A DNA stretch of 64,000 bases from an uncultured bacterium (GTDB taxonomy: Bacteria; Fermentibacterota; Fermentibacteria; Fermentibacterales; JCC-6), in NCBI GenBank assembly GCA_965371785.1, contig CBDUZS010000002.1, positions 2,362 to 66,361 of the forward strand. Reading direction: 5' to 3'. Below the pieces are notes generated by a model. That model had not been told where the DNA came from, did not search any database, and saw only the letters and a program-made list of their open reading frames with translations. The position numbers were made by a program, and so were the translations under genes. How positions within the stretch are numbered: position 1 is the first letter of the stretch; each line of letters begins with the position of its first letter. Below, piece after piece: positions 2,768-52,501 of this stretch.

Positions 2768-4380
2768 TCAGATCGGGAGGAACCAGGTTATTTTCGTGTA
2801 GAAACCGTAATCCGGGTTGTGGAAATCACCGTTCTCGTCTGCTTCGAAAACATTTTCCGCAAGGAAGTACAGCATGCTTCCCGGTCTGTACTCCCAGGAG
2901 AAGAGCATATTTGCCGTTATCTCCCTGGTCTCGCTTCTCTCCGAAAGCCTGTAGTCCATAGCGAATTCGGAGTACTGTGAGAAGATCCTGAGGTTCATGC
3001 AGGGGCTGAACATGTAATTCATCCTGAGAACAATCGATCTCCAGTCGGTATCGCGGCTGTCGAATCCGTACACGTCCGGGTCCCAGTTGAAGTACTCCGC
3101 ATCCCTGGTCCGGAAGAATTGACCCTCGAGACGCAGCTCTAGCGCTGATGAAGGCCGGAATCTCAGGTTGGCCATGTAGTTGCCGAACGTACTTCCGGAG
3201 CCCCACTGGCCGCCGCCGATGCCTCCCCAGAGAGAGAAGGGATCGAACGGACTGGTTCCACTATCGAGGAAGTAATGAAATGCTCCATCGTAGTAATGTC
3301 CTTCCGGGCCTTCGTAGGGATCGAATCTGTCAGCGTCGCAGGTTAGATCGAGCCCGAACCGCAGCCCGCTCTTCAGACTCGCATGTGAACCCAGGCTCAG
3401 GTTTCTTGCAGTGGTCTCACCGTCCTCGAGCCTGGAGTAGTACGCATTGCCCCCGAAACCAACCTCGCTGAACGTCTGCTCCGGACGGATGTTGTTCCAT
3501 ACGTGAGCCCACGCTTCGTAGTATCCTGTTTCGGTCGTGAAACCCGTTCCGTTCACGTTGAAGTCCTCTTCCACGTACTGTCCTCCGGCCCCGTAGGAGA
3601 AGGTGCTGTTGATCCTGTCGATATTCAGTCGGCAGGCGCTGCCCTCACCGGCTCCGCTGTTCCAGCTCCTTCCGGCTGCCGTGCTCACCAGGTGATTTCC
3701 CGGCAATTCTATAGCGCCATCCAGAGCAAGCGCGCGATTGTGCTCCGAATCGAAAGTTTCCTGCTCCCAGGATTCCCTGGAAACGGCCGAGATGCCAAGA
3801 TAGCTGTGGGAGCCGAGCTGTTTGTAACCGCGTAATATTCCGTAATTCGCAGCAGGTTCTGCCAGTGTGGTGTCATCCTCCCAGACCCTCGAAGTTACCG
3901 CATCGATCAGGCCGAACCTGAAACCGTCACCGAACGAACCGGATACCTTGGCTCCACCGATTATCGGGATCACCTCACCGTTCGGTGCTATGGCTCCTAT
4001 CCTTCTGGAATAGAACATGTTGAATGGCATCTGGAAGACGCCTCTCGATCGAGAAAGAATGGGCGTCTGTCCTGGAGGAAGAGCTCGAAATGTGAGAGGT
4101 TCATCTCGACGGCATCTGCCTAGATCTGTCCGAAGTCGGGGTTGAAGGTGAAGTCGGATGTGATTCCGCTCGACAGACCGACCTTCAGGTCGACTCCCGC
4201 TTCGAACGTGTTCTCCCAGGTATCATCGATGTCCGTATGGAACTCTCTTGCCGAGCCGTAGGGACGAACCTCTGCTCCAAGGGAACGGTTCCGAGGAGTG
4301 ATAGTAACAATGCTGTCGCCGTCATGATGCTCCCATCGGATGACAGCAGGGAAGGTATACATTTTCCGCAGGCAGTTCAA
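2768..4380 (-). pseudogene. DUF5916-family (CBM9-associated outer-membrane-like) gene remnant. It has an in-frame amber stop at 4120–4122, a frameshift near 4022–4048, and lacks the N-terminal carbohydrate-binding region.
   Basis: Two adjacent minus-strand ORFs (4380→4120 and 4030→2768). The first ends ...FTFNPDFGQI*. It resumes in the same frame as ADAVEMNLSHFELFLQDRRPFFLD, then needs a 1-nt frame change to continue into ...FNMFYSRRIGAIAPNGEV. NPDF(S/G)Q(V/I)EAD, FELF...RPFFL and FYSRRIG are hallmark DUF5916 motifs (recalled from memory, not searched). Only ~80 aa precede the NPDFGQ motif, whereas family members have a ~250-aa N-terminal region. Confidence 0.5.
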
Positions 4381-19848: not shown

Positions 19849-20978
19849 GTGAAATGCTCGATGTCGTACTGGACATGACTCCTGCCGCTCACAGCAGGGG
19901 AGGTGTGGGCAAATACCTGACACTGCTTGCGTCCAGCCTTCACGCCCACTCGCGGGAGGAAGGGCTGAGATTTCGCACCCTCGATATTCCCGCTGCCAGA
20001 CCGGGGACGCCTCCGCTGCCTGCCGAGCCGGATCTGACCCTCGGTAATCCGCTCTACCTCGGGATTCCCCTTCTGAGGCGGCTGCCGATAAGATATTCGC
20101 GGGAATTGCGTTCGAGAGGCAGGAGGCTGAGTACTCTTCTGGGGAAGAAGGGAATTTTCCACCACAGCGGGGTCCAGCCAGTCTGTCCCCGGGGATGGAC
20201 ATCCGTGCTGACAACGTTCGATCTCTCCGCAATTCAACATGAGAAATGGCATACGCTGGAGACCGTCTCGTACGGAGCCAGGGAGAAGCAGCTGACGGAG
20301 GAAGGCTCCAGGCTGATTGCCATCTCCCGATGGGCAGCCGGCGAGGCGGAATCATACTTTTCCCTTGAAAGCGGGACGGTAGGCATCGCCGGCGGCGCTG
20401 CGGGACCAATCTTCGTGCCGGGTGAACCAGACCCGGAATTCCTTGCGGAAAACGGTCTCGAAAGGGAACGATTCGTTCTGCACGTGGGCAGCTTCGTTCC
20501 GAGAAAGAACATTCCCTTCCTTCTTGAGGTTTATTCAGCCTGCGTCGATGACGGTTTCGACTATCCCCTCGTAATGGTGGGAGCAGAGGAGTGGGGAGAA
20601 CTGGATATCGATACAGGTCTTCCGTGGCTGCGAATCTTTTCGGGGATATCTGACGAAGACCTCCTGAGCCTTTACAGGGGAGCCAGAGCCGTTCTGCTCC
20701 CCAGCAGGTATGAGGGCCTCGGTTTCCCGGCACTCGAAGCCATGGCCTGCGGCAGACCTCTTCTCTGCAGCAATGCTGCAGCGCTTCCCGAAACCGTGGG
20801 AGACGGTGGGCTGCTGCTCGATCCGGATGACGCTCACGCCTGGCGCAGAGCCATATCGCACCTCGAGGACGATGAGCACCTGTCGATGCTCAGGAAAATG
20901 TCTGAAAGCGTTCACCGACGAACCTGGGAAGAGGTCGCATCGAATGCCGCGGCGTTCTACAGGAGCATATCCGAATGA
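19845..20978 (+). CDS. glycosyltransferase family 4
   Basis: C-terminal GT4 core (VGSFVPRKNIPFLLEVY...LLPSRYEGLGFPALEAMACGRPLLCSNAAALPE). GTG start overlaps the upstream stop. Confidence 0.8.
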   Translation: MSEMLDVVLDMTPAAHSRGGVGKYLTLLASSLHAHSREEGLRFRTLDIPAARPGTPPLPAEPDLTLGNPLYLGIPLLRRLPIRYSRELRSRGRRLSTLLGKKGIFHHSGVQPVCPRGWTSVLTTFDLSAIQHEKWHTLETVSYGAREKQLTEEGSRLIAISRWAAGEAESYFSLESGTVGIAGGAAGPIFVPGEPDPEFLAENGLERERFVLHVGSFVPRKNIPFLLEVYSACVDDGFDYPLVMVGAEEWGELDIDTGLPWLRIFSGISDEDLLSLYRGARAVLLPSRYEGLGFPALEAMACGRPLLCSNAAALPETVGDGGLLLDPDDAHAWRRAISHLEDDEHLSMLRKMSESVHRRTWEEVASNAAAFYRSISE

Positions 20979-26358: not shown

Positions 26359-27173
26359 AGCTCTCGGTAGTGGTTCCATCCCGAAACGGACTGTGCTTTC
26401 TCCGGAAGTACCTCCCCGCAGTACTGGCAGACCTGGGAAACGGGGGAGAGCTGATCGTGGTGGACGATTGCTCCGATGACGAGACGGCAGTCAAAGGACC
26501 GGTCGAATTTCCGGAAGTCAGATTCATCACAAGGCAGGGCGAGCCCGGATTCTGTCATGCGGTGAACATCGGAATGCGTGAGTCTTCGGGAGACATGCTC
26601 CTGCTGCTGAACAATGATGTTCTTCTACCCGAGGGGGCTCTTTCGACACTTGCAGAGGAGTTGCATAAGGCTCCACAGTACTACTGCGCAGCAGTTCCCC
26701 GGATAAGGCGGCCCGACGGCTCGGACGAGAGTAAGGTGAACTACATGTTCAGCAGGGGTCTGGCATCTACTTCGCTCGGCGGTGACGGTGTTCCGTATCC
26801 ATCGGGAGCCTGCAGCCTCTGGAGGCGTACCTCATGGGAGTCACTCGGCGGTCTGGATACGATCTATGCACCCATATACTGGGAGGATGCCGACATCGGA
26901 GCCAGAGCATTCAAGCTCGGGATGAAGGTTCTCAGAATACCGGGAGTCGAGGTACAGCATGAACATGCAGCAACCATGCGGCTGTCACCCGAATCGGACT
27001 CTCTACGGGAGAGAAACAGATTCATATTCATGCACAGGCACTTCAGAACGCCCCCTGCCAGACTCTCGACTGCATTCTGGCTGCCTCTGCACCTGCTGAA
27101 GGCTGCCTTGACGGGGAACACAGCATTCCTGAAAGGTTACAGGAGCTTTCTCTTGATGAAAGGGCTGCTGTGA
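26355..27173 (+). CDS. glycosyltransferase family 2
   Basis: MKLSVVVPSRNGLCFLRKYL...LIVVDDCSDDET...LLLNNDVLLPEG. ATGA overlap upstream and GTGA overlap downstream. Confidence 0.8.
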   Translation: MKLSVVVPSRNGLCFLRKYLPAVLADLGNGGELIVVDDCSDDETAVKGPVEFPEVRFITRQGEPGFCHAVNIGMRESSGDMLLLLNNDVLLPEGALSTLAEELHKAPQYYCAAVPRIRRPDGSDESKVNYMFSRGLASTSLGGDGVPYPSGACSLWRRTSWESLGGLDTIYAPIYWEDADIGARAFKLGMKVLRIPGVEVQHEHAATMRLSPESDSLRERNRFIFMHRHFRTPPARLSTAFWLPLHLLKAALTGNTAFLKGYRSFLLMKGLL

Positions 27174-28840
27174 AGAAGGCCAGGTTCGTACTGGGAGTAG
27201 AGCTGCTCACCGGCATGGTTGCCGGAGCTGCAGCGCTTTCCGCTGTTGCTTCACTGCTGATAACACTTCTCGTCATTCAGGATTCTGCGAACAGATCCAG
27301 CGCTCTGGCCATGTACACGGTGTCGTCCATTGCCCTGAACCTTCCCCCTGATCCCGGATACGAAGATCTGAGGGGGGCCGTACACGGTCTTGTTCTCGGA
27401 GAAACAATAGACGCAGTCGTTGTCGCGGACAGCCTTTTCAACCCGCTTCTAAGTGTTGAGCCCCTTTCCTCGGGAATACTTCCGCTCAGGCAGGACGATT
27501 GGGTCTTCTACAGTATCCCCGATAGTCCGCTGATGGTAGGTGTAATACCGGTGAACCCGCTTTCATCCGGTTTCAACATGCTCCTGATGACGGGTCTGGC
27601 GGTGCTTGCGGCCGGTCTGACCATAATAGCCATATTCACCCCCGGATACCTGAAGAGGCGGGTCCTGGCCCCTCTGAAGGCCATTCTCGGCGAAGCCGAC
27701 AGGCTCGAGGAGGGAGCAGGTAGAAATCCTGACACCGCGCGGGCATCTTTTCATCGTGTTGTCGAACTCCTGGAAGACAGGGACAGGGAACTGGAGCTGC
27801 TGAGGAAAGAAGCCGAGAAAAGGGCTGATGCTGCCGAATCCAGAGCGGGAGCTCTACTCTCCGCCATCCGTTCGTCCGTACTCGCTCTGGACGATGAGGG
27901 AAACCTTGTCTTCTTCAACGACCCGGCGAGAGAACTCTTCGATCTGGTTCCCGATGACAGGGGCGCCGGGTTCCCACTCGACAGGTCGGAGACCGGGTCG
28001 AGAATGAAGAGAGTACTGAACACATTCGAGGGAACAACACTCGAGACCGAGATAGAAATTCCCTCCGATGCGGGAAAAAGAATACTGAACGTCTCCATAT
28101 CATGTTCCGATACCGGAGAAACGGTTATCCTGCTCACGGACGTGACAAGGCTTGCCGAACTGGAGAGAAGGATAGCCGAGGAAACCGCAATGGCTGATCT
28201 GGGTTCGGTGTCAGCAGGCATTTCCCACGAAGTCGGAAACACACTCTGTGCTCTTTCGGGCTTCATAGAGCTGCTTGGAAAGGGACACAGCGACGAGCGG
28301 ACGATGTCAATACTCTCAGAGGCCAAAGTGGAAATCGACTCCGCACGGCAGACGGTAGAGTCGTTCAAAGCCCTTGCCGGATCCGGGAAACCTGTTTCGA
28401 CGGTCGTACCGGTGGAAGAACTGCATGAACTTGCCAGAGAACTATGCGAAGAGATGGGTGACCGGTGCGGGGTATCGACGGAGCATATTTCAGGGGCGGT
28501 TTCGGTTGACCGTCTACTGATGAGCAGGTGCATCAGCAACCTGCTCAGGAACTCAATCGAAGCGGATCCGGACAGCAGAATAGAGGTTAACCTCTCGTGC
28601 ACTGCAGGGGAGTTCATCCTTCTCGTCGAAGACGATGGCCCGGGCTTTGCAGAGGACACCGAAATCCTTTTCAGACCGCTCTATTCGACGAAACGCAGCG
28701 AAGGCAACATGGGGATCGGTCTCACCATAACCAGAAGGATAATAGCAGCATTTGGAGGGAAGGTGACAGCCTGCCGAAAGGCCGATGGCAAGGGCGCAAT
28801 CGTGAGCATCAGGCTTCCCCTCGTTAAGGAGACGAATTGA
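27170..28840 (+). CDS. sensor histidine kinase (2 TM, periplasmic loop, PAS-like, HisKA, HATPase_c)
   Basis: H-box MADLGSVSAGISHEVGNTL. ATP-lid LVEDDGPGF...GIGLTI. Two TM segments flank a ~130-aa extracytoplasmic domain. Confidence 0.85.
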   Translation: MKKARFVLGVELLTGMVAGAAALSAVASLLITLLVIQDSANRSSALAMYTVSSIALNLPPDPGYEDLRGAVHGLVLGETIDAVVVADSLFNPLLSVEPLSSGILPLRQDDWVFYSIPDSPLMVGVIPVNPLSSGFNMLLMTGLAVLAAGLTIIAIFTPGYLKRRVLAPLKAILGEADRLEEGAGRNPDTARASFHRVVELLEDRDRELELLRKEAEKRADAAESRAGALLSAIRSSVLALDDEGNLVFFNDPARELFDLVPDDRGAGFPLDRSETGSRMKRVLNTFEGTTLETEIEIPSDAGKRILNVSISCSDTGETVILLTDVTRLAELERRIAEETAMADLGSVSAGISHEVGNTLCALSGFIELLGKGHSDERTMSILSEAKVEIDSARQTVESFKALAGSGKPVSTVVPVEELHELARELCEEMGDRCGVSTEHISGAVSVDRLLMSRCISNLLRNSIEADPDSRIEVNLSCTAGEFILLVEDDGPGFAEDTEILFRPLYSTKRSEGNMGIGLTITRRIIAAFGGKVTACRKADGKGAIVSIRLPLVKETN

Positions 28841-30138
28841 ACAGGATACTGCTCGTCGAGGACAAGCGGGGCATGAGGGTAATGCTGAGCACCGCTCTCA
28901 CCGAGGATGGATGGGAAGTGACTGCCGTTCCCAGCGGCGAACGTGCGGTCCGGGAAATAAGTTCGACCGAGTTCCCATTCGACATGATTCTCACCGATGT
29001 GTGTCTGCCGGGCTCCATCGACGGGAACGAAGTACTCAGTCATTCACGCGGGGCAACGCCATCCACTCCCGTGATACTCATGACTGCATTCGGAACGATA
29101 GAGATGGCTGTGTCGGCGATGAAACGCGGTGCGCGTGACTTCATCACGAAACCGTTCGAGCTCGAGAACCTTCTCAGGCTCGTAAGACGTCACGCAGCAT
29201 CTCATGAGAACAGCATGATAGGCACTTCCCGGTCTCTGTCCCGCGAGGTTGACAGGGCGATGAAGGGAGCGGTCACGGATCTGAACATGCTGATTCTGGG
29301 CGAAAGCGGAACCGGAAAAGAGCTCCTTGCAAGAATGGTCCATTCCGAAAGCCGCTGGAAGGATGGACCTTTCATACCCGTAAACTGTGCGGCAATTCCC
29401 GCTAATCTCATGGAAAGTGAATTATTCGGCGCAGAGAAGGGGGCTTACACCGGTGCGGATGCCAGGCGTATCGGCAGATTCGAACTTGCGGACGGCGGCA
29501 CGATTCTCCTCGATGAAGTGGGAGACCTTGCACCCTCTCTCCAGGGGAAGCTGCTTCGTATTCTCCAGGAGAAGGAGTACACGAGAGTTGGCGGAACCGA
29601 GCTCCTCCACGCAAAAGTAAGGGTTATCTCCGCAAGCAACAGGGATCTCACAGCTTCGATTGAATCGGGACTGTTCCGGAAGGATCTCTACTACAGGATC
29701 AGTGAGTTTCCTGTTACCCTCCCGCCCCTGAGGAAAAGAGCGGAAGACATCCCCGAACTCGCAAAGTATTTCCTGAGACAGTGCGGCTACGACAACCTGA
29801 CCATTTCGGAACAGGCCATGTCCTTGCTGGCAAGGTACGACTGGCCAGGGAACGTAAGGGAACTGCGGAACATCGTTCTCAGAGCAGCCGCTCTTGCGCA
29901 GCAGGATGTTATCGATTCCACTCTCCTCGAGATAGGAGACGGCTCCGCCCCGGAAGAGGGTCTTCTCCAGGAAGCGAACAGGGTAGCGAGAGAGCGTGAG
30001 AGGGAGATGATTCTCTCCACTCTTCTGGAAACCGATGGCAACAGGAAAAAAGCCGCGGAGATTCTCAAGGTCAGCTACCGCACACTGCTCTCGAGAATCA
30101 AGGAACTCAGGCTGGGAACGGATACCGGGAAGGGTTAA
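28837..30138 (+). CDS. sigma-54-dependent response regulator (NtrC family: REC, AAA+ sigma54-activation, Fis-type HTH)
   Basis: REC with D in ILTDVCLPG. GESGTGKELLARMVH Walker A. ESELFGAEKGAYTGA GAFTGA motif. C-terminal HTH (KKAAEILKVSYRTLLSRIKEL). TTG start overlaps the kinase stop. Confidence 0.9.
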   Translation: MNRILLVEDKRGMRVMLSTALTEDGWEVTAVPSGERAVREISSTEFPFDMILTDVCLPGSIDGNEVLSHSRGATPSTPVILMTAFGTIEMAVSAMKRGARDFITKPFELENLLRLVRRHAASHENSMIGTSRSLSREVDRAMKGAVTDLNMLILGESGTGKELLARMVHSESRWKDGPFIPVNCAAIPANLMESELFGAEKGAYTGADARRIGRFELADGGTILLDEVGDLAPSLQGKLLRILQEKEYTRVGGTELLHAKVRVISASNRDLTASIESGLFRKDLYYRISEFPVTLPPLRKRAEDIPELAKYFLRQCGYDNLTISEQAMSLLARYDWPGNVRELRNIVLRAAALAQQDVIDSTLLEIGDGSAPEEGLLQEANRVAREREREMILSTLLETDGNRKKAAEILKVSYRTLLSRIKELRLGTDTGKG

Positions 30139-30357
30139 CCGTTCCCGAATGCTTTTCTGGAACCCCCGGACATGATCGGACTATCTCCGGTTGACCGGGA
30201 AAGGTGAGTGAGATATTATTTCTCCGTGGCAATGACACCTAAAGAGAAACCGTTTTTCGCTGTAGCTGAAGGCTATTCCGGAGACGGTCTTTTTCATACC
30301 AGGGAACATATCCGAAGCAGTTCGAGAGGGGCATTTCTTGCCCTGAAGGGAGAGAGT

Positions 30358-30900
30358 ATGAACATCGATATCAGCGGAAGGCACTTCGATCTCACGGATG
30401 CGCTGAAGACTCACGTAGAAGATAAAATCTCTGCTTTCGAAAGATTCTACGATGGTATAGATGATGTGCACGTCATCCTGGAGTTCACTGCCGGGTTGAA
30501 CCATGCACATATCTCTGTCAGGGGCGACAGGCTAAGGCTGGACTCCAGATCGAAATCGCACGACATGTACTTCGCGATAGACGAATGCGTATCCAGCCTC
30601 GAAAGACAGATCAGGAGGTTCAAGGACAGAATTCACGGTCACCCTCACAGGGGCGGAGGCAACGGCAAAAAAGGCACTTACTACGTTCCCGTGGAAATGT
30701 CAGAACTCAACAAAATCCTTCTCGTAGAGAACGGCACACTGCTCCCGAGGTTTACCACGAACAACGCGATGACCGAATTCGAGGTCGACGGGGATGACTA
30801 CCTGGTTTTCTTCAACACCGAGACCAACAGCGTGAATGCGGTGTACAGAACTCCCGGCGGTACGAGTCAGGTCGTCGAACTCATGGAAGCGGGAGTGTAG
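30358..30900 (+). CDS. hpf: ribosome hibernation-promoting factor, long form
   Basis: MNIDISGRHFDLTDALKTHVEDKISAFERFYDG... C-terminal dimerisation domain (YLVFFNTETNSVNAVYRTPGGTSQVVEL). ATG 30358 is preceded by GAAGGGAGAG. The longer track ORF start (30208) lacks an RBS. Confidence 0.85.
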   Translation: MNIDISGRHFDLTDALKTHVEDKISAFERFYDGIDDVHVILEFTAGLNHAHISVRGDRLRLDSRSKSHDMYFAIDECVSSLERQIRRFKDRIHGHPHRGGGNGKKGTYYVPVEMSELNKILLVENGTLLPRFTTNNAMTEFEVDGDDYLVFFNTETNSVNAVYRTPGGTSQVVELMEAGV

Positions 30901-31130
30901 CCCCACTGAGCGATCTCTATCCCGATTCCGAGAACGTAACCGCGGCCAGCATTCTGAAAGCGCTGCGAAAAAAACTGAAGCTCAGCTCCGCCATAGAAGA
31001 CACCGGCTTCGACAGGCTGATAACCTCTCCCGACATCAGCCGGCCGGGCCTCTGTCTTACCGGCTACACTCACAACTTTTTATACGAGCGGATACAGATA
31101 TTCGGCGAGACCGAGATCACCCTCCTGAAC

Positions 31131-31874
31131 ATGCTCGATCCGAAGCTGCGGAAAGAAGCTATCTCAAACGTGTTCCGGTTTCCAGTGAATTGCAGCATGG
31201 TTACGAAGGGCCTTGAACCTCCGCCCGAACTGCTCGAAGCCTCTCGCGATTCGGGGGCGGCTCTCTTCATCTCATCGAGGGACACAACACCGCTCATCCA
31301 TGATCTGGGAGACTACCTGACCGAGGTGTTTTCCCCGGTGGAATCGGTGCACGGCACGCTTGTCGACGTTTTCGGAGTCGGACTTCTCTGTACGGGTAAG
31401 AGTTCGATCGGGAAGAGTGAAGCGGTTCTCGGTCTCATGGAGAGAGGACACCGTCTCGTTGCCGACGACATGGTCAGGATTCGCAGAGTATCCGACAAGC
31501 TCGTAGGCTCAGGGGATACACTGATGAGCTATCACATGGAGATAAGGGGTCTCGGGATGGTTAACATCGCAGATCTCTTCGGTATCAGGTCCACAAAGGA
31601 ACGTCAGCAGGTCGACCTCGAAGTCAGGCTTCAGGCATGGTCGGAAGTTCAGAACCTCGATCGCACGGGGCTGTCTAAAACCGAAGCCAGTATACTCGAC
31701 GTATCGATTCCACTTATAATTCTGCCCGTGCTTCCCGGAAGAAACCTGTCACTCCTTCTCGAAGTGGCAGTTCTCAACCATATCCTCGACAAGAGGGGTA
31801 TGAACCCGGCAAGGAAGCTGAACAGGGCCCTGATCCAACGAATGACCGGAGAGAAACCCGAAAAGGAAGGCTAA
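31131..31874 (+). CDS. hprK: HPr kinase/phosphorylase
   Basis: Kinase domain with P-loop GVGLLCTGKSSIGKSE and LVADDMV. The HprK N-terminal domain (VTAASILKALRKKLKLSSAIEDTGFDRLITSPDISRPGLCLTGY...) is encoded in the same frame upstream, from ~30900. No ATG/GTG/TTG exists between the in-frame stop at 30795–30797 and 31131. The true start may be non-canonical (CTG at 30906, with GGGAG 10 nt upstream). Confidence 0.8.
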   Translation: MLDPKLRKEAISNVFRFPVNCSMVTKGLEPPPELLEASRDSGAALFISSRDTTPLIHDLGDYLTEVFSPVESVHGTLVDVFGVGLLCTGKSSIGKSEAVLGLMERGHRLVADDMVRIRRVSDKLVGSGDTLMSYHMEIRGLGMVNIADLFGIRSTKERQQVDLEVRLQAWSEVQNLDRTGLSKTEASILDVSIPLIILPVLPGRNLSLLLEVAVLNHILDKRGMNPARKLNRALIQRMTGEKPEKEG

Positions 31875-31877
31875 TCG

Positions 31878-32150
31878 GTGTTCAGCACGACTGTGACAGT
31901 GCCGAACAGGCTTGGCATACATGCAAGGCCGGCGGCACAGATAGTCAAGCTCGCATCAACGTTCCTGAGCGAGATATCCCTTGTCGTCGGACACGATCAG
32001 GTAAACGCCAAGAGTATCATGGGGGTCATGACCCTCGCAGCGGGCGCAGGCACTGAGGTCGGCATCAACGCTGACGGTTCGGACGAGCGGAAGGCAGTCG
32101 ATTCACTGGCCGATCTCTTCGAAACAGGCTTCGGGGAAGAGATGGTCTGA
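31878..32150 (+). CDS. ptsH: phosphocarrier protein HPr
   Basis: 90 aa. His15 context GIHARPA. Regulatory Ser46 context KSIMGVM. GTG start. Confidence 0.85.
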   Translation: MFSTTVTVPNRLGIHARPAAQIVKLASTFLSEISLVVGHDQVNAKSIMGVMTLAAGAGTEVGINADGSDERKAVDSLADLFETGFGEEMV

Positions 32151-33922
32151 TGAAGGTTTTATTCGACGGCACACCCGCATCCCCGGGCATCGTGATAGGT
32201 CCCGCGTTCCTGCTCAACGTCGGGGAACTTCGAATCGCCAAGCATGTTCTTTCCGGCAAGAGTGCCGTGAAGGCTGAGATAGAGCGATTTGACCGAGCTA
32301 TCGGGGAGACCCGCAAAGAACTCGAATCGATCTCATCAGATCTGGGTGATGTACTCGAGGGCAAACAGATCATCGAAGTCCATATCCTTCTCCTGGATGA
32401 TCCCACAATGCAGAAGGAAGTCCATTCACGGATCAGGAACGACCTGGTAAACGCTGAATATGCTGTCAGTCAAGTTCTCCGCGACGTGGTAAAGCGTTTC
32501 ATGCAGCTGAAGGACTCCTACATGAGGGAGAGAGCGGCCGACGTCAGGGATGTCGGCAGGCGGGTTATTTCCAGACTCCTCGGAACCGAGCGTGAGGTTC
32601 TCGGAAAAGTGATCGAACCAGTGGTCCTCGTCGCGAGGGACATCGACCCATCCGAGACGGCAGGGCTCTCCAGCAAACAGGTTCTTGCCTTAGTCACCGA
32701 CAAGGGCGGAAGAACCTCACACACTGCCATTCTGGCAAGGAGCCTGGGAATACCGGCGGTAGTAGCCCTCAAGGATGTGGCCGAACACACGCAGCCCGGT
32801 GATACCATCATAGTAGACGGAATCCATGGCAGGGTGATCATCAACCCTGACAAGGAAGAACTGCGCTTCTACCGTGAACTGCAGTGCAGATACGAAGAGG
32901 CAGAGGCTGACATCGCCCTGAACGCCTCGGACCCTGCGGTTACACTGGACGGTGTTTCCATAGAACTCTCGGCGAACATCGAATTCTCGCAGGAAGCCGA
33001 GCAGGTCAAACGCTACGGGGGAGCGGGAGTAGGTCTGTTCAGAACCGAATTCCTTGGTCTTCTTTATCCCGATATGGAGAACGAAGAGGAGAATCACTAC
33101 CTCGCCTACAGGCACGTACTCGAACTCCTGAAGCCCGATCCTGTCATAATCAGGACCCTCGACCTCGGCGGTGACAAGTTCCTGAACGATCTGGGTGCCG
33201 TTGAAGCGAATCCGTTTCTCGGATGGAGGGCTATCAGGGTCTGCCTGGATCAACCCGAGCGATTCAGAGTTCAACTCCGCGCAATCCTCAGAGCATCGGT
33301 TGCGGGCAATGCATGGCTGATGGTTCCCATGGTCACCGATGTGTTCCAGGTTACAAAGCTGAAAGAGCACATCGCCGAAATCGGAGAAGATCTCAGGGAG
33401 GAAGGGATTCCCTTTGACGAGGACATGCCGGTGGGGATAATGGTCGAGACTCCCGCGGCAGCCCTGGGAATCGATCTGCTATTGCCTTACGTCGATTTCG
33501 TCTCCATCGGAACCAACGACCTGACCCAGTACACGCTGGCCGTTGACAGGGGGAGCCCATACGTTGCGCACCTGTTCGATTCTCTGCATCCAACCGTACT
33601 CAGGCAGATAGATCATGTCGCGAGGTACTGCAAATCTCATGGAAAATGGGTCGGGGTTTGCGGGCAGATAGCAAGTGATCCTCTGGCCGTTCCTCTATTG
33701 CTCGGCCTGGGCGTGAACGAGCTCAGCGTAGCGCTTACCCAGATTCCCGATGTAAAGAAGATGATCAGCGTCGTGACAATGGATGGATCGAGGAGTCTGG
33801 TGGAGAAGGCACTCAAAATGGAATCAGGCAGGCAGATAAGAGAGCTGGTCAGAAACTTCGTTGCAGGAAGTTATCCTGATATCCTGCTGGAGGACGACCA
33901 CGACGAGATGGGGGAGAACTGA
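32150..33922 (+). CDS. ptsI: phosphoenolpyruvate–protein phosphotransferase (PTS enzyme I)
   Basis: 590 aa. Phospho-His domain GGRTSHTAILARSLGIPAVV. PEP-utilising C-terminal domain (VSIGTNDLTQYTLAVDR). Confidence 0.9.
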   Translation: MKVLFDGTPASPGIVIGPAFLLNVGELRIAKHVLSGKSAVKAEIERFDRAIGETRKELESISSDLGDVLEGKQIIEVHILLLDDPTMQKEVHSRIRNDLVNAEYAVSQVLRDVVKRFMQLKDSYMRERAADVRDVGRRVISRLLGTEREVLGKVIEPVVLVARDIDPSETAGLSSKQVLALVTDKGGRTSHTAILARSLGIPAVVALKDVAEHTQPGDTIIVDGIHGRVIINPDKEELRFYRELQCRYEEAEADIALNASDPAVTLDGVSIELSANIEFSQEAEQVKRYGGAGVGLFRTEFLGLLYPDMENEEENHYLAYRHVLELLKPDPVIIRTLDLGGDKFLNDLGAVEANPFLGWRAIRVCLDQPERFRVQLRAILRASVAGNAWLMVPMVTDVFQVTKLKEHIAEIGEDLREEGIPFDEDMPVGIMVETPAAALGIDLLLPYVDFVSIGTNDLTQYTLAVDRGSPYVAHLFDSLHPTVLRQIDHVARYCKSHGKWVGVCGQIASDPLAVPLLLGLGVNELSVALTQIPDVKKMISVVTMDGSRSLVEKALKMESGRQIRELVRNFVAGSYPDILLEDDHDEMGEN

Positions 33923-34902
33923 TGCATGCGATCATTCCGGTTGCCGGCAAGGGAACCAGACTCAGGCCCCATACCTATTCAACTCCCAAAGCCCTCCTTC
34001 CCGTCGCGGGGCGCCCCATTCTCGCTCACATCATTGACAGGCTCATTCCGGCCGGAATAGAAAGGCTCACCCTCATCGTCGGCCACCTCGGTGACCAGAT
34101 CGTCGAATGGACGAAGAACAGGTACGATATGCCCGTCGATTTCGCGGTACAGGAGAGTATGGATGGTCTGGCGGCCGCCCTACTGCTGGCTTCACCCTGG
34201 TGTGATGACTCGAGGACGATGGTCGTGCTGGGTGATACCATCTTCGAAGCAGATCTGTCTTCACTCGGGAGTGGCTCCCGTAACATCATCGGTGTCAGGC
34301 CCGTTGAGGATCCAGGGCGTTTCGGTGTTGTCGTTATGGAAGGTGAACGAGTCGTCAGGCTTGTCGAGAAACCCGCAGAATTCGTTAGTGATATAGCAAT
34401 AGTGGGGATTTACTGCTTCAATTCCGGTTCAGGATTGATGGACGCCTGCAGCAGTCTTGTCGATTCCGGTCGAAGAACGAAAGGTGAGTTCCAGCTCACC
34501 GATGCCATGCAGAACATGCTTGCCTGCGGCGAGGAATTCGGCACATTTCAGGTCGAGAGCTGGTTCGACTGCGGAAACGTCGAAACCATGCTGGAAACGA
34601 ACAGGATTCTTCTCGATGCTCGTCCTCAGGAAACATCTCAGGAACTGCTTGGTGATTCCATCGTCATACAACCATCTTTCGTTTCTTCCGATGCAAGACT
34701 CTCTTCGTCCGTAATAGGCCCATACGCCTCGATCGGCCCGGGAAGCATCATCGAGAGATCGGTTGTATCCGACAGCATTGTTGGGTCGAATTCGAGGATA
34801 ACATCTGCAATTCTCGAACACTCCCTTGTCGGCAACGATGTTGTCGTCGAGGGTCATCTCCAGTCAGTTAACACCGGAGACAACTCCGTCATTGATTTAT
34901 GA
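33922..34902 (+). CDS. sugar-1-phosphate nucleotidyltransferase with C-terminal left-handed beta-helix domain
   Basis: IIPVAGKGTRLRPHTYSTPKALLPVAGRPIL (G-x-G-T-R-L NTP-transferase motif). C-terminal hexapeptide-like repeats (IVIQPSFVSSDARLSSSVIGPYASIGPGSIIERSVVSDSIVG). Confidence 0.8.
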   Translation: MHAIIPVAGKGTRLRPHTYSTPKALLPVAGRPILAHIIDRLIPAGIERLTLIVGHLGDQIVEWTKNRYDMPVDFAVQESMDGLAAALLLASPWCDDSRTMVVLGDTIFEADLSSLGSGSRNIIGVRPVEDPGRFGVVVMEGERVVRLVEKPAEFVSDIAIVGIYCFNSGSGLMDACSSLVDSGRRTKGEFQLTDAMQNMLACGEEFGTFQVESWFDCGNVETMLETNRILLDARPQETSQELLGDSIVIQPSFVSSDARLSSSVIGPYASIGPGSIIERSVVSDSIVGSNSRITSAILEHSLVGNDVVVEGHLQSVNTGDNSVIDL

Positions 34903-35953
34903 CGCGGTAATATACGGGTCTTCTCTCGGCAACATGGGAGGGACCGGAGTGTACCTCAGAAGGCTGATAGATGGTCTTTCCCAGATTCCATTCCCTGGTG
35001 TAGGAGTCGCCACTGGAGATGGCCTCTTCGACCCGAAGGACGTTCCGGCGGAAGGCTATCCGCGAGGTCTTCGCAAAGTGTTCAGAGAGAATATCAGAAT
35101 TCCCGCCATGCTTGCCGCCCTCAGCCCCGGTCTGGTTCACCTTCCTGCATTCGGGGGGAGGGCACCGGATGGAATTCCTTTCGTCGTGACACTCCATGAT
35201 CTCGCCTTTCTCCACAGACCGGACTGGTTTCCCCGAATCCGCTCGCTCTACTACAGGACACATTTCGGGAAGACGGCGAGGAATGCGGACATGGTGCTTG
35301 TCGACAGCGATTTCACCGGAAGGGAAGCCGTCAGGCTTCTCGGTCTCGAACCTTCTCGAATCAGAAGGATCTACCTGTCCACCCCCGACTTCACTTCATC
35401 TCAACAGCTATCCGGAAAGCTCTTCCCCTCCGATGGAGAACCCTACCTTATTTCGGTTGGCACCATTGAGCCTCGAAAGAACATTTCAGCTCTCCTTGAC
35501 GCCTGGCGAATCCTCCTGCCGAAGCTGGAGGGCTTCACACTGGTCATCGCCGGCAGGTGGGGCTGGGGTGAACGATCTCTTCGGAAGCGTCTCCTCACGG
35601 AGCCCGGTGTCCGCTGGGCAGGCTCTCTCCCGGAAGAGGTGCTCCGCAGCGCTGTCTCCGCTTCGCGATTACTGGTCTACCCCTCTCTTTACGAAGGATT
35701 CGGTCTTCCTCCCCTCGAAGCCGCATCGGCCGGTGTACCATTCGTTATCGGCCCTGCAGCCGCACTCGAGGAGGTCTACGGCGGGATAGCGGCTGCTTCC
35801 TGCGGTGATTCACCGGAGTCGATTGCCGAAGCAGTGCACAGCGCTCTTGGCTCATCGCCCTGTTCCGACGAGCTGCGGGAGTTCGCAAGTGCGTTTTCTA
35901 ACAGAAAGATGGCTGAGGAAGTCCTGTCGGTTTACAGGGAGGTTCTGCACTGA
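34892..35953 (+). CDS. glycosyltransferase family 4
   Basis: Probable TTG start at 34892 ((M)IYDAVIYGSSLGNMGGTGVYL), overlapping the upstream stop by 11 nt; the ORF track's 34826 start overlaps by 77 nt. C-terminal LVYPSLYEGFGLPPLEAASAGVPFVIGPAAALEE. Confidence 0.7.
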   Translation: MIYDAVIYGSSLGNMGGTGVYLRRLIDGLSQIPFPGVGVATGDGLFDPKDVPAEGYPRGLRKVFRENIRIPAMLAALSPGLVHLPAFGGRAPDGIPFVVTLHDLAFLHRPDWFPRIRSLYYRTHFGKTARNADMVLVDSDFTGREAVRLLGLEPSRIRRIYLSTPDFTSSQQLSGKLFPSDGEPYLISVGTIEPRKNISALLDAWRILLPKLEGFTLVIAGRWGWGERSLRKRLLTEPGVRWAGSLPEEVLRSAVSASRLLVYPSLYEGFGLPPLEAASAGVPFVIGPAAALEEVYGGIAAASCGDSPESIAEAVHSALGSSPCSDELREFASAFSNRKMAEEVLSVYREVLH

Positions 35954-36054
35954 AGGTTCTGCACGTCTACAAGGACGTTCATCCGATCGTAAGGGGTGGC
36001 ATCGAACGCTACATCCACGATCTGGGCGGCTTCTTCGTTTCCAGGGGACACGAG

Positions 36055-37047
36055 GTGGATGTCCTGGTTGCAGGTTCTCCCGGCGGCATGAGAACTGAAA
36101 CGGTAGATGGAATGCGGATCATCTCCGCGAGGTGTCTTCTGAGAATTCTCTCGAATCCTCTGTGCCCGGGTTTCGGAAAGCATATATCGCGTTCCGATGC
36201 GGATATTATTCACTTCCACCTGCCTCTCCCGACCGCGGTGATCAGCTGGCTCCTCAACAGGAATTTCGGTTCGAGACCTTTCGTGGTGACGTATCACAGT
36301 GACATCGTTCGCCAGGCTTTCGTCATGCCCTTTTACGGCCCATTCCTGAAGAGGTTTCTGCGCAAAGCGAACAGAATTATCGCCACGTCGAGGGCATACG
36401 TCGAAAGTTCGAGATGGATCAGAGACCTTCCCAACGTCTGCGTTGTACCGATCGGCGCAGATCCGGGGAAATTCAAAGTGGGAAAGCCGGATGAAAGAGA
36501 GGATTTCTTCCTCTTCGTCGGACGGTTCCGAAAGTACAAGGGAATTGATGTACTCCTGGATGCCTGGAAGAGTTTATCGGATCACAGGCTTATCATGGTT
36601 GGCGGCGGTCCTCTGCTGCCGATGATGAGGAAAAGGATAGAGGACGAGAATCTCAACGTTTCGATTATCACCGATCCATCCGACGACGTACTTGCCGCAT
36701 TGTATGGAAGCGCTCTTGCGCTGATTCTTCCCTCGACTTTGAGAAGTGAGGCATTCGGCATGGTCCAGGTCGAGGCAATGTTCTGCGGAACTCCAGTGAT
36801 AAGCACGGCAATCGATACCGGTGTGCCATGGGTGAACAAGGATTCCGTATCGGGACTGACCATCGAACCTGGCGATTCGGCTGCTCTTGTGAGTGCTGTA
36901 CATCGCATTCTCGAAGGTGATGAATGGTCACGTCTATCGGAGGGGGCGAGGGAGAGGGCTGTTTCACTCTTCGATGGTCCCATGCTGATGAGCAGGATAG
37001 AAAAGATCTGTATGGAAGTTCTTGATGACCGGCAGAACAGATCCTGA
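36055..37047 (+). CDS. glycosyltransferase family 4
   Basis: GT4 core FLFVGRFRKYKGIDVLLDAW...LILPSTLRSEAFGMVQVEAMFCGTPVISTAIDTG. GTG 36055 is the first canonical start. However, the conserved GT4 N-terminus (KVLHVYKDVHPIVRGGIERYIHDLGGFFVSRGHEV) is encoded in frame from 35950, after the stop at 35914–35916. A CTG at 35950 sits 7 nt after AGGGAGG, so the true start is probably 35950. Confidence 0.8.
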   Translation: MDVLVAGSPGGMRTETVDGMRIISARCLLRILSNPLCPGFGKHISRSDADIIHFHLPLPTAVISWLLNRNFGSRPFVVTYHSDIVRQAFVMPFYGPFLKRFLRKANRIIATSRAYVESSRWIRDLPNVCVVPIGADPGKFKVGKPDEREDFFLFVGRFRKYKGIDVLLDAWKSLSDHRLIMVGGGPLLPMMRKRIEDENLNVSIITDPSDDVLAALYGSALALILPSTLRSEAFGMVQVEAMFCGTPVISTAIDTGVPWVNKDSVSGLTIEPGDSAALVSAVHRILEGDEWSRLSEGARERAVSLFDGPMLMSRIEKICMEVLDDRQNRS

Positions 37048-50940: not shown

Positions 50941-51752
50941 TAGAATTCTGGAAGATGAGCGGTGCGGGTAACGATTTCATTTTTCTGAGCAACTTCGACG
51001 GAGCTCTCGACGGTGTCCTCACGAAGGAATTCATCAGCTCCGTGTGCAGAAGAAATGCTTCGGTTGGTGCTGACGGGTTGATAGAGCTATCGAACGATCC
51101 GGATACCGCTTTTCGAATGAGGTACTGGAACAGAGACGGCATCTCCGCCGCCATGTGCGGCAACGGCGGCAGATGCGCGTGCGTTTTTGCCGAGAGGATG
51201 GGAATACTCGAGGATGCAGGCCGATTCACTTTCCGCTCGGATTCAGGAGTTCACACCGGAGAGATTACTTCCGATTCGACTGCCAGGATATGGCTGACGG
51301 ATCCTGTTACCGTCTTTCTGGGGAAGAACCTTGACTACGGAGGCAGGTACACGGTTTCTTACGTCGTTGCGGGAGTCCCGCATGCCGTCCTGTTTACCGA
51401 CGGTCCTGATGACCCTGAATTCGATAGATTCGCAGAGGTTCTCAGAAGGCACGAAGAGTTTCAGCCGGGAGGGGCAAACGTTGATTTTGCGTTTATCACC
51501 GGCCACAATTCCGTAACTCTCCGCACCTTCGAGCTGGGTGTCGAATCGGAGACTCTCGCCTGCGGCACGGGTGCGGTAGCGGCCGTGTTATGCGCCCGGG
51601 AACTCTTTCCCGGCAGGCTTTCCCTGCCGGTCATGGTCAAAGTCAGAAGCGGCCTTGTGTTGGAAGTCGGTCGGGACGAGAAGGGCTGGTGGCTCATGGG
51701 AGAGGCCAGAATTGTTTACCGGGGGTTTCTTGAAGCCATCCCCGTTACTTGA
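50937..51752 (+). CDS. dapF: diaminopimelate epimerase
   Basis: MIEFWKMSGAGNDFIFL N-terminus. Second catalytic Cys context (ETLACGTGAVAA). ATGA overlap upstream. Confidence 0.9.
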   Translation: MIEFWKMSGAGNDFIFLSNFDGALDGVLTKEFISSVCRRNASVGADGLIELSNDPDTAFRMRYWNRDGISAAMCGNGGRCACVFAERMGILEDAGRFTFRSDSGVHTGEITSDSTARIWLTDPVTVFLGKNLDYGGRYTVSYVVAGVPHAVLFTDGPDDPEFDRFAEVLRRHEEFQPGGANVDFAFITGHNSVTLRTFELGVESETLACGTGAVAAVLCARELFPGRLSLPVMVKVRSGLVLEVGRDEKGWWLMGEARIVYRGFLEAIPVT

Positions 51753-51793
51753 CAGGGAAGCGAGGACATACCATCTACACGCGATTGACCGGA

Positions 51794-51869
51794 GCGGGCA
51801 TAACTCAGCCGGCAGAGTGTCAGCTTCCCAAGCTGAATGTCGCGGGTTCGATTCCCGTTGCCCGCTCCA
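51794..51869 (+). tRNA. tRNA-Gly (anticodon CCC)
   Basis: 76 nt, GCGGGCATAACTCAGCCGGCAGAGTGTCAGCTTCCCAAGCTGAATGTCGCGGGTTCGATTCCCGTTGCCCGCTCCA. Hand-folded: 7-bp acceptor stem (GCGGGCA/TGCCCGC), D-stem ACTC/GAGT, anticodon stem TCAGC/GCTGA with loop TTCCCAA, T-arm GCGGG-TTCGATT-CCCGT, discriminator T, encoded CCA. Confidence 0.9.
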
Positions 51870-52051
51870 TTCTTTTCCTGTTCCTGCTGCTTACCACTCC
51901 TCTGCTTGCTGATACCGGGGGAGGCAGTTCAGACGCATGGGCTATCCGCTCGGGTTATGCGCCATCTTCTTCAGCCGATGCGGTCTTATGGAGGCTGCAC
52001 CTCTACTGTCTTCTCGATGAAGGACTCGAAGAGGAACCCGATCTCGACCTG

Positions 52052-52501
52052 ATGATAAGAAATTTGAAAGCCGGGGACGTCTACGCCCTGATCACGGTAG
52101 TGAGCGAACTGGTCAGGAAGGGACGGCTCTCGGACGCACGGGCATTCATGGAGGGCAGGGGAGTGCTCATCCCGGCCACGAGAAGGGATCTGGCCATCGC
52201 ACTCGCATGGTACGGCAGGTTCGAGATTCTCGATGCCCTGGAATACCGCTCGGATCCTCCGCCTGACCTCGAGGGCGATACCTACGAAGCACAGATATCC
52301 GCCCTGATGGTCATGGGCTGGATGGAAACATCGCCTGACGGCTTGTTCCATGGTGATAACCTTGCAGGAGTGAGAGATATAGAACTTGCCGCGTCCGGAT
52401 TACTGGGGTTGCCGGTCGAATGGAGCTGGGACTGGATCGCGATCAGCGAACTCGATCGCCTCTTCACCTCCGGTTCGATAGAGAGAGACACCGTCAGGTG
52501 A
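52052..52501 (+). CDS. hypothetical protein (start uncertain)
   Basis: Open frame continues from the tRNA through 52501. First canonical start after the tRNA is ATG 52052 (MIRNLKAGDVYALITVVSELVRKGRLSDARAF...). The upstream in-frame segment encodes a signal-peptide-like stretch (ILFLFLLLTTPLLADTGGG) with no ATG/GTG/TTG. Confidence 0.3.
   Translation: MIRNLKAGDVYALITVVSELVRKGRLSDARAFMEGRGVLIPATRRDLAIALAWYGRFEILDALEYRSDPPPDLEGDTYEAQISALMVMGWMETSPDGLFHGDNLAGVRDIELAASGLLGLPVEWSWDWIAISELDRLFTSGSIERDTVR

Follow-up and report, generated by a model that had tools for sequence, protein, structure and literature searches.

The gene hprK, which encodes HPr(Ser) kinase/phosphorylase, follows hpf, the gene of a long ribosome hibernation-promoting factor, in the 64-kb stretch of DNA from a member of the Fermentibacteria which was analysed here as a whole and is called the window; the features of the hprK locus lie on its + strand. 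At the position where about 90 Fermentibacteria orthologs of this gene carry a standard start codon the window has the CTG at 30906, and this CTG is probably the initiation codon of hprK, with a probability of roughly 0.8. It would be read by initiator tRNA as formylmethionine, and weak initiation at this site might be aided by, or even depend on, ribosomes which are just finishing translation of hpf, either by termination-reinitiation or by local unmasking of the site. For this coupling step taken alone the chances are about even.

Standard gene finders accept only ATG, GTG, and TTG, which are referred to here as canonical starts. A codon-by-codon listing of the hprK frame from the stop at 30795–30797 to the ATG at 31131 comprised 111 codons without a single one of the three, as had been claimed in a preliminary description of this DNA. 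When about 50 long open reading frames (ORFs) of the window were compared for the open stretch ahead of their first canonical start, that of hprK was by far the longest, the next one reaching 69 codons. CTG 30906 is the earliest near-cognate codon in the frame. The lack of canonical codons alone is not beyond chance, as close relatives have synonymous GTG or TTG codons at the internal codons 11 or 17. What does exceed chance is the positional match of CTG 30906 to the start codon of the orthologs.

The protein translated from 30906 matches positions 4–125 of the 125 positions of the Pfam profile PF02603 (E=2.8e-29) and positions 3–169 of the 171 positions of PF07475 (E=6e-56). Its score with TIGR00679 is 316.2 bits as compared to a curated equivalog cut-off of 240 bits, with positions 4–299 of the 300 in the profile being matched. 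In an alignment with 1KO7, the structure of full-length HprK/P from S. xylosus, residue 18 falls on residue 5 of the structure, of which residues 5–297 are covered. The HprK family is defined by a Walker-A P-loop (GxSxxGKSE), the EIRGLG signature, and the LVADD and PGRN motifs. The window protein contains GKSSIGKSE, HRLVADD, MEIRGLGM, and LPGRNL, all invariant in its clade, so that whole-protein score, the completeness of both domains, and the signature motifs place it in the family. On these profiles the gene is intact and encodes a full-length HPr(Ser) kinase/phosphorylase with predicted activity on Ser46 of HPr. Initiated at the CTG, the protein would begin (M)SDLYPDSENVTAASILK, while a start at ATG 31131 would cut away half of the N-terminal domain; the earlier claim that this domain is encoded ahead of the first ATG was thus confirmed. 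An N-terminal extension of about 13 residues carrying the motif [RSQ]-D-x-Y-P-[DE]-P (window 30906–30956) is specific to the HprK of this phylum, and Firmicute HprK is without it.

The nearest proteins come from Candidatus Fermentibacteria, Aegiribacteria and Sabulitectum among them. Among the GTDB species representatives no genome has an HprK more than 64% identical to that of the window; in a metagenome collection a search with the single protein yielded no further close relatives, and a search with an alignment yielded only one contig, L086, which is cut at the N-terminus. The start codons of hprK orthologs were read in 57 GTDB species representatives and 34 further metagenome loci, about 90 in total. 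Their N-termini follow the pattern M/V/L-[RSQ]-D-x-Y-P-[DE]-P...T-V, and their first codon aligns exactly with CTG 30906. The codon at this position is ATG in 30, GTG in 18, and TTG in nine of the species representatives, CTG in none of them, and canonical in all of the 34 metagenome loci. An alignment of 24 Fermentibacteria HprK sequences showed D3 and P6 to be invariant and Y5 to be nearly invariant throughout the phylum, from which it follows that the residues just past the CTG belong to the protein. All three are kept in the CTG lineages, where their codons show the synonymous changes TAT/TAC and CCC/CCA. The suggestion of the preliminary description that CTG 30906 is a candidate for initiation is therefore supported by comparison with orthologs which have an equivalent start.

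The CTG was found in twelve independent assemblies (JGI, ENA, NCBI, Logan) representing at least eight distinct haplotypes and two sub-lineages. Besides the window these comprise L155, a separate ENA assembly which differs from the window by one mismatch in 1744 nucleotides (nt), and L001, L002, L148, L149, L150, L151, and L154 from JGI samples, in which HprK is 92–96% identical to that of the window. The second sub-lineage consists of L003 (NCBI GCA_030598865.1), L152 (Logan), and L153 (ENA), with an HprK only 73–75% identical to the window protein. Every one of these assemblies has the CTG 5 nt past the hpf stop, and in all of them a GGAG core ends 10 nt upstream of the CTG, in the form of GGGAG in most and of TGGAG in L148. 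No canonical alternative start is conserved in the CTG lineages: GTG at Val11, TTG at Leu17, and ATG or TTG at codon 76 each occur only in some strains, being internal codons which are synonymous or vary, and the start codon found at codon 30 in the L152/L153 strain is a leucine codon in L003. Recorded HprK calls near the window have 247, 248, 295, 306, and 312 amino acids, which makes five different truncations, and such a scatter is what is expected when gene finders meet no canonical start at a conserved position. For P0005, a protein with 71% identity, the recorded start is an ATG inside the gene, at codon 11. The L003 group has an additional in-frame CTG three codons upstream, which overlaps the hpf stop as CTGA (GGGAGC CTG ACC CGC CTG AGC; L003 1213–1224, L152/L153 1408–1419), and initiation may occur at this earlier CTG in that group.

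Several points weigh against initiation at the CTG. Initiation at CUG in E. coli reaches only about 1-2% of that at AUG (bioRxiv 10.1101/063800), and initiation complexes on CUG are unstable, less so on AUG, GUG, and UUG (PMC11497404), so that expression of HprK may be very low. The spacing of 10 nt between GGGAG and CTG is rather long, and as GGGAG encodes the C-terminus of HPF, its bases are constrained as hpf coding sequence in any case and their conservation says little on a Shine-Dalgarno role. RNA structure at the hpf-hprK junction is not significant (z=0.62), 143 of 200 shuffled sequences folding at least as well, and so lends no support to unmasking of the site. That the CTG triplet is invariant does not by itself make a compelling statistical case, since 63% of the leucine columns are equally unchanged within the window group, and between the two CTG groups seven of twelve CTG leucine codons are retained. 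Finally, the assignment of the start is inferred from sequence comparison. As conservation at the codon level is weak as a statistical argument, the case for the CTG rests on positional homology, on the lack of an alternative start, and on selection acting downstream of it.

Coupling of this initiation to translation of hpf, be it through ribosomes which have just left hpf or through de novo binding which hpf translation assists, fits the layout of the junction, because the gap is +5 nt, the Shine-Dalgarno-like core lies inside hpf, and no promoter or terminator matches were found between hpf and hprK. The GGGAG noted in the preliminary description indeed stands 10 nt ahead of the CTG, which begins right after the hpf stop with a spacer of 5 nt. 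Termination-reinitiation has been reported to require overlaps or very short distances (PMC10666635). With a weak codon at such a junction HprK would be made in a small, fixed amount relative to HPF and HPr; a low and fixed ratio of HprK to HPF is plausible for a regulatory kinase, and low expression would then be a selected outcome.

CTG 30906 might also be used independently of hpf, with a free 30S subunit binding to GGAG and starting de novo, the proximity of the hpf stop reflecting operon packing only. This is a possible but rather doubtful explanation. A Shine-Dalgarno-like core is found upstream of 13 of the 26 plausible starts in the window as compared to 17% at random positions, an excess from which it follows that the organism uses Shine-Dalgarno pairing. 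About half of the plausible starts thus have such a core, and the GGAG ahead of the CTG is within the functional range of distances. Furthermore, most Fermentibacteria orthologs start at most 15 nt from the hpf stop, irrespective of their start codon. On the other hand, both candidates for a CTG start in the window, hprK and a glycosyltransferase gene described below, are located where the spacing to the upstream gene is tightest (+5 nt and a 4-nt overlap), the gap in the CTG lineages is 5 nt shorter than in their GTG sisters, and a codon as weak as CUG is in E. coli (1-2% of AUG, bioRxiv 10.1101/063800) would gain most from a pre-positioned ribosome.

These GTG sisters are L004 and L005, which have GTG at the start position, 10 nt past the hpf stop (1985–2003 in each). 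Identity matrices of HprK, HPF, HPr, and the first 150 residues of PtsI were concordant and placed the L003 group nearest to L004 (84–90%) and L005, the latter for HprK, HPF, and HPr only, with the window group outside of this cluster at 73–78% identity. Two separate gains of the CTG are the most parsimonious account of this pattern, a single gain followed by reversions being the alternative. The 5-nt gap brings the start closer to the hpf stop and to GGAG, and the shortening could be compensatory or could form part of the mutational path to CTG; with the few lineages available this is suggestive only. L005 is without the GGGAG. Both CTG lineages have a tandem stop in the hpf frame (TAG CCC CAC TGA, window 30898–30909; L003 1214–1225), which is absent from the GTG sisters with the 10-nt spacer.

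According to a further explanation the CTG is not used at all, and a shortened kinase starts downstream, at ATT 30951 or, in this strain, at ATG 31131, the codons upstream being a decaying remnant. Short forms of HprK without the N-terminal domain do exist in other bacteria. Gene finders call ATG 31131, and there is a partial match to NF003883. Selection on the disputed codons makes this explanation very unlikely. Within the CTG lineage the ratio of nonsynonymous to synonymous substitution rates (dN/dS) is 0.07–0.20 for codons 2–75, at a dS of 0.4–0.85, as compared to 0.08–0.23 for codons 76–322; the codons ahead of ATG 31131 are thus both translated and under constraint, to no lesser degree than the catalytic part. 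The N-terminal domain, which a start at codon 76 would halve, is complete in its profile match. In addition, ATT 30951 is CTT in other strains, and the position of Met76 is occupied by leucine in the orthologs.

A fusion of HPF and HprK, made when ribosomes close to the end of hpf undergo programmed -1 frameshifting or bypass, is highly improbable. Relative to hpf, hprK lies in the -1 frame, and ahead of the CTG this frame stays open over 36 codons in the window group and over about 122 codons in the L003 group, as such a fusion would need. In most orthologs, however, it is closed 1–10 codons upstream, hence a fusion is not ancestral. A scan of the last 40 hpf codons in eight CTG-lineage sequences yielded no X-XXY-YYZ heptamers and no homopolymers of six or more bases, take-off and landing codons are mismatched, and the downstream RNA structure, scored against shuffles, is the non-significant one mentioned above. 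In the absence of a slippery heptamer, a homopolymer, and matching codons, -1 frameshifting, transcriptional slippage, and bypass from hpf were all rejected.

An error of sequencing or assembly at the CTG, or an inactivating mutation which arose very recently in this one genome, has a negligible probability: the window does come from a metagenome-assembled genome and one sister assembly has a coverage of 3.8x only, but the miscalled base considered in the preliminary description is excluded by the same CTG in twelve independently assembled contigs from different samples and pipelines, in strains with a dS of up to 0.85 and with one lineage only 73–75% identical.

The window contains a second gene with an apparent CTG start, which had escaped the preliminary description. 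About 5 kb from the hprK CTG, a GT4 glycosyltransferase appears to start at CTG 35950. Its first canonical start is GTG 36055, but the Pfam match to Glyco_transf_4 extends 20 codons further upstream. Translation from the CTG begins LKVLHVYKDVHP, and orthologs start with M/V-K-[VI]-L-[QE]-[VI]-Y-K-D-[VI]-H-P exactly at this codon, the first residue being M on the L153 contig and V on the L004 contig. In the L002 strain (L156), with 90% identity, the CTG has been retained although substitutions have occurred on its flanks. Public calls of the gene in the window group have 330 or 240 amino acids and are thus 35 or 125 residues short. A screen for further hidden starts combined two approaches. Out of 36 + strand genes only hprK and this glycosyltransferase gene have an open frame across a positive gap of at least 30 nt to the first canonical start, and when 18 stop-to-stop translations, taken from both strands, were scanned with Pfam, none of them gave a further candidate for a non-canonical start. 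RNA structure masking the start site was also considered and rejected, the folds at both CTG junctions being no better than those of shuffles.

For the GT4 gene upstream of this one (34892–35953, +) the most likely start is TTG 34892, a canonical codon, from which it overlaps the gene of an NTP-transferase by 11 nt. On the related contig L156 (1880–2899) it was called from an internal ATG with 339 amino acids, leaving no residues ahead of Glyco_transf_4, which looks too short. Another GT4 gene at 20975 starts at ATG. On the - strand the ORF 2768–4222 is open for 64 codons ahead of the first canonical start, and of the 572 profile positions of DUF5916 it matches only those from position 87 onwards.

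The coordinates of the features are compiled in Table 1. The genes hpf, hprK, ptsH, and ptsI would form one operon, presumably read as a single transcript. Gene calls in relatives use the same ATG 30358 for hpf as found here. Directly upstream of hpf a histidine kinase and a sigma-54-dependent response regulator, an NtrC-type AAA+ activator, are encoded (window 27170–30138, +), a synteny which is kept in all close relatives. In many bacteria hpf comes after rpoN; here it comes after a sigma-54 activator instead. In the related contig Ga0366824_1034301 (L002 4070–5842) ptsI is present as two calls of 290 and 259 amino acids with a 120-nt gap, which points to a frameshift or a stop codon in that strain or to a problem of its assembly.

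Table 1: Positions of features at the hprK locus and at the second CTG junction of the window.
Feature	Position	Strand	Remarks
Sigma-70-like promoter match TTGACC-17-TATTAT	30191–30219	+	Upstream of hpf; possible operon promoter; consensus match only, 1 site vs 0.9 expected by chance
hpf, long ribosome hibernation-promoting factor, 180 amino acids	30358–30900	+	Stop TAG 30898–30900; Pfam Ribosomal_S30AE 1.7e-22, S30AE_C; TIGR00741
TGA closing the hprK frame upstream	30795–30797	+	Inside hpf, in frame with ATG 31131
GGGAG, Shine-Dalgarno-like core	30891–30895	+	Inside the last hpf codons; 10 nt before CTG 30906
Spacer of 5 nt (CCCCA), hpf stop to CTG	30901–30905	+	
CTG, proposed hprK initiation codon	30906–30908	+	Aligned with ATG/GTG/TTG starts of about 90 orthologs; kept in 12 assemblies
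TGA in the hpf frame	30907–30909	+	Two codons past the hpf TAG; overlaps the CTG as CTGA
hprK, predicted full-length HPr(Ser) kinase/phosphorylase, 322 amino acids	30906–31874	+	TIGR00679 316 bits; 1KO7 2.7e-64
HprK N-terminal domain PF02603	30957–31319	+	Residues 18–138, E=2.8e-29
Internal ATG (Met76), first canonical start	31131–31133	+	Start used by gene finders; 247-amino acid product recorded at NCBI, ENA, and Logan
HprK C-terminal catalytic domain PF07475	31329–31826	+	P-loop GKSSIGKSE at 31395–31421
ptsH (HPr), GTG start	31878–32150	+	Pfam PTS-HPr 7.3e-30
ptsI (enzyme I)	32150–33922	+	ATG overlaps the ptsH stop; PEP-utilisers domains
GGAGG	35938–35942	+	7 nt before CTG 35950
GT4 glycosyltransferase, apparent CTG start 35950–35952	35950–37047	+	Stop-to-stop 35917–37047; CTG overlaps the upstream stop TGA 35951–35953 as CTGA

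Among known non-canonical starts that of infC, for which autoregulation by IF3 has been demonstrated, keeps a regulatory protein low and sensitive to the start-codon discrimination exerted by IF3. The start codon of infC (IF3) is AUU or AUA, and that of pcnB is AUU (PMC2830850). As proposed for hprK, these are conserved non-canonical starts of regulatory proteins, whereas their mismatch lies in the third base and that of CUG in the first. The plasmid protein RepA in E. coli, which starts at CUG, is cited as the classical bacterial CTG initiator (PMC2830850); it shares with hprK the near-cognate CUG as a bacterial start, but is a plasmid replication protein, while hprK is a conserved chromosomal operon gene. 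In the Deinococcus-Thermus group peptides support a conserved CTG start of rpsL, encoding ribosomal protein S12 (Baudet et al. 2010, PMC2830850), and Deide_03051 was re-annotated to a CTG start (PMC2830850). In both cases conserved chromosomal genes, rpsL and hprK being housekeeping genes, have a CTG which aligns with the starts of orthologs, were mis-annotated, and are not the only such gene of the organism. In contrast to Deinococcus with its peptides, the hprK case is known from sequence alone. It concerns another phylum, Fermentibacteria, and other genes, hprK and a GT4 gene, and differs also in that both CTGs are found at tight stop-start junctions and that the hprK CTG occurs in two separated sub-lineages.

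Translational coupling by termination-reinitiation has been described for ATGA or TGATG junctions or very short gaps with canonical starts (PMC6728339, PMC10666635, PMC12548453). The two junctions described here resemble these cases in having co-directional genes, a distance of +5 nt (hpf-hprK) or a 4-nt CTGA overlap (GT4 pair), and a Shine-Dalgarno-like motif in the upstream gene. They differ in having a CTG in place of a canonical start codon, and coupling is suggested here by geometry. HprK/P of Firmicutes (S. xylosus 1KO7, L. casei 1JB1; TIGR00679) has the same two-domain architecture, P-loop, and EIRGLG signature, with ptsH adjacent, whereas the Fermentibacteria protein has about 13 extra N-terminal residues, hpf upstream of its gene and, in the lineage of the window, a putative CTG start.

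A more far-reaching reading is that this lineage makes regular use of CUG as a fourth start codon, in some percent of its genes and specifically at tightly coupled stop-start junctions. It is put forward because two of about 50 window genes show a CTG and because the hprK CTG most parsimoniously arose twice, and it is unlikely to hold. If true, it would mean that start codons are discriminated less strictly during reinitiation, or that the clade has an altered IF3, initiator tRNA, or 16S P-site, and HprK dosage could then also follow translation of the hibernation factor HPF. The window contains no initiator tRNA or infC genes, its sole tRNA gene being that of tRNA-Gly (anticodon CCC) at 51794–51869 (+). 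This tRNA gene sits inside a 250-codon ORF from TTG 51749 to 52501, which is therefore unlikely to be a gene.

As CTG starts are already documented in bacteria, the present case extends a known rarity and overturns nothing, the phylum and the genes being new. Added to this are the tight junctions of both CTGs, the two sub-lineages sharing the hprK CTG, and the presence of two such genes within 5 kb. For annotation it means that every public call in this hprK clade lacks 10 to 75 residues at the N-terminus, a recurrent error in these genomes; because gene finders allow just ATG, GTG, and TTG, such metagenome-assembled genomes give a distorted picture of domain content and orthology. An evolutionarily maintained, putative CUG start in a regulatory kinase, 5 nt past the hpf stop, and a second one at a CTGA overlap would together provide a compact test case for whether termination-reinitiation tolerates or even favours very weak starts, and for whether weak starts may set low, fixed protein ratios within operons.

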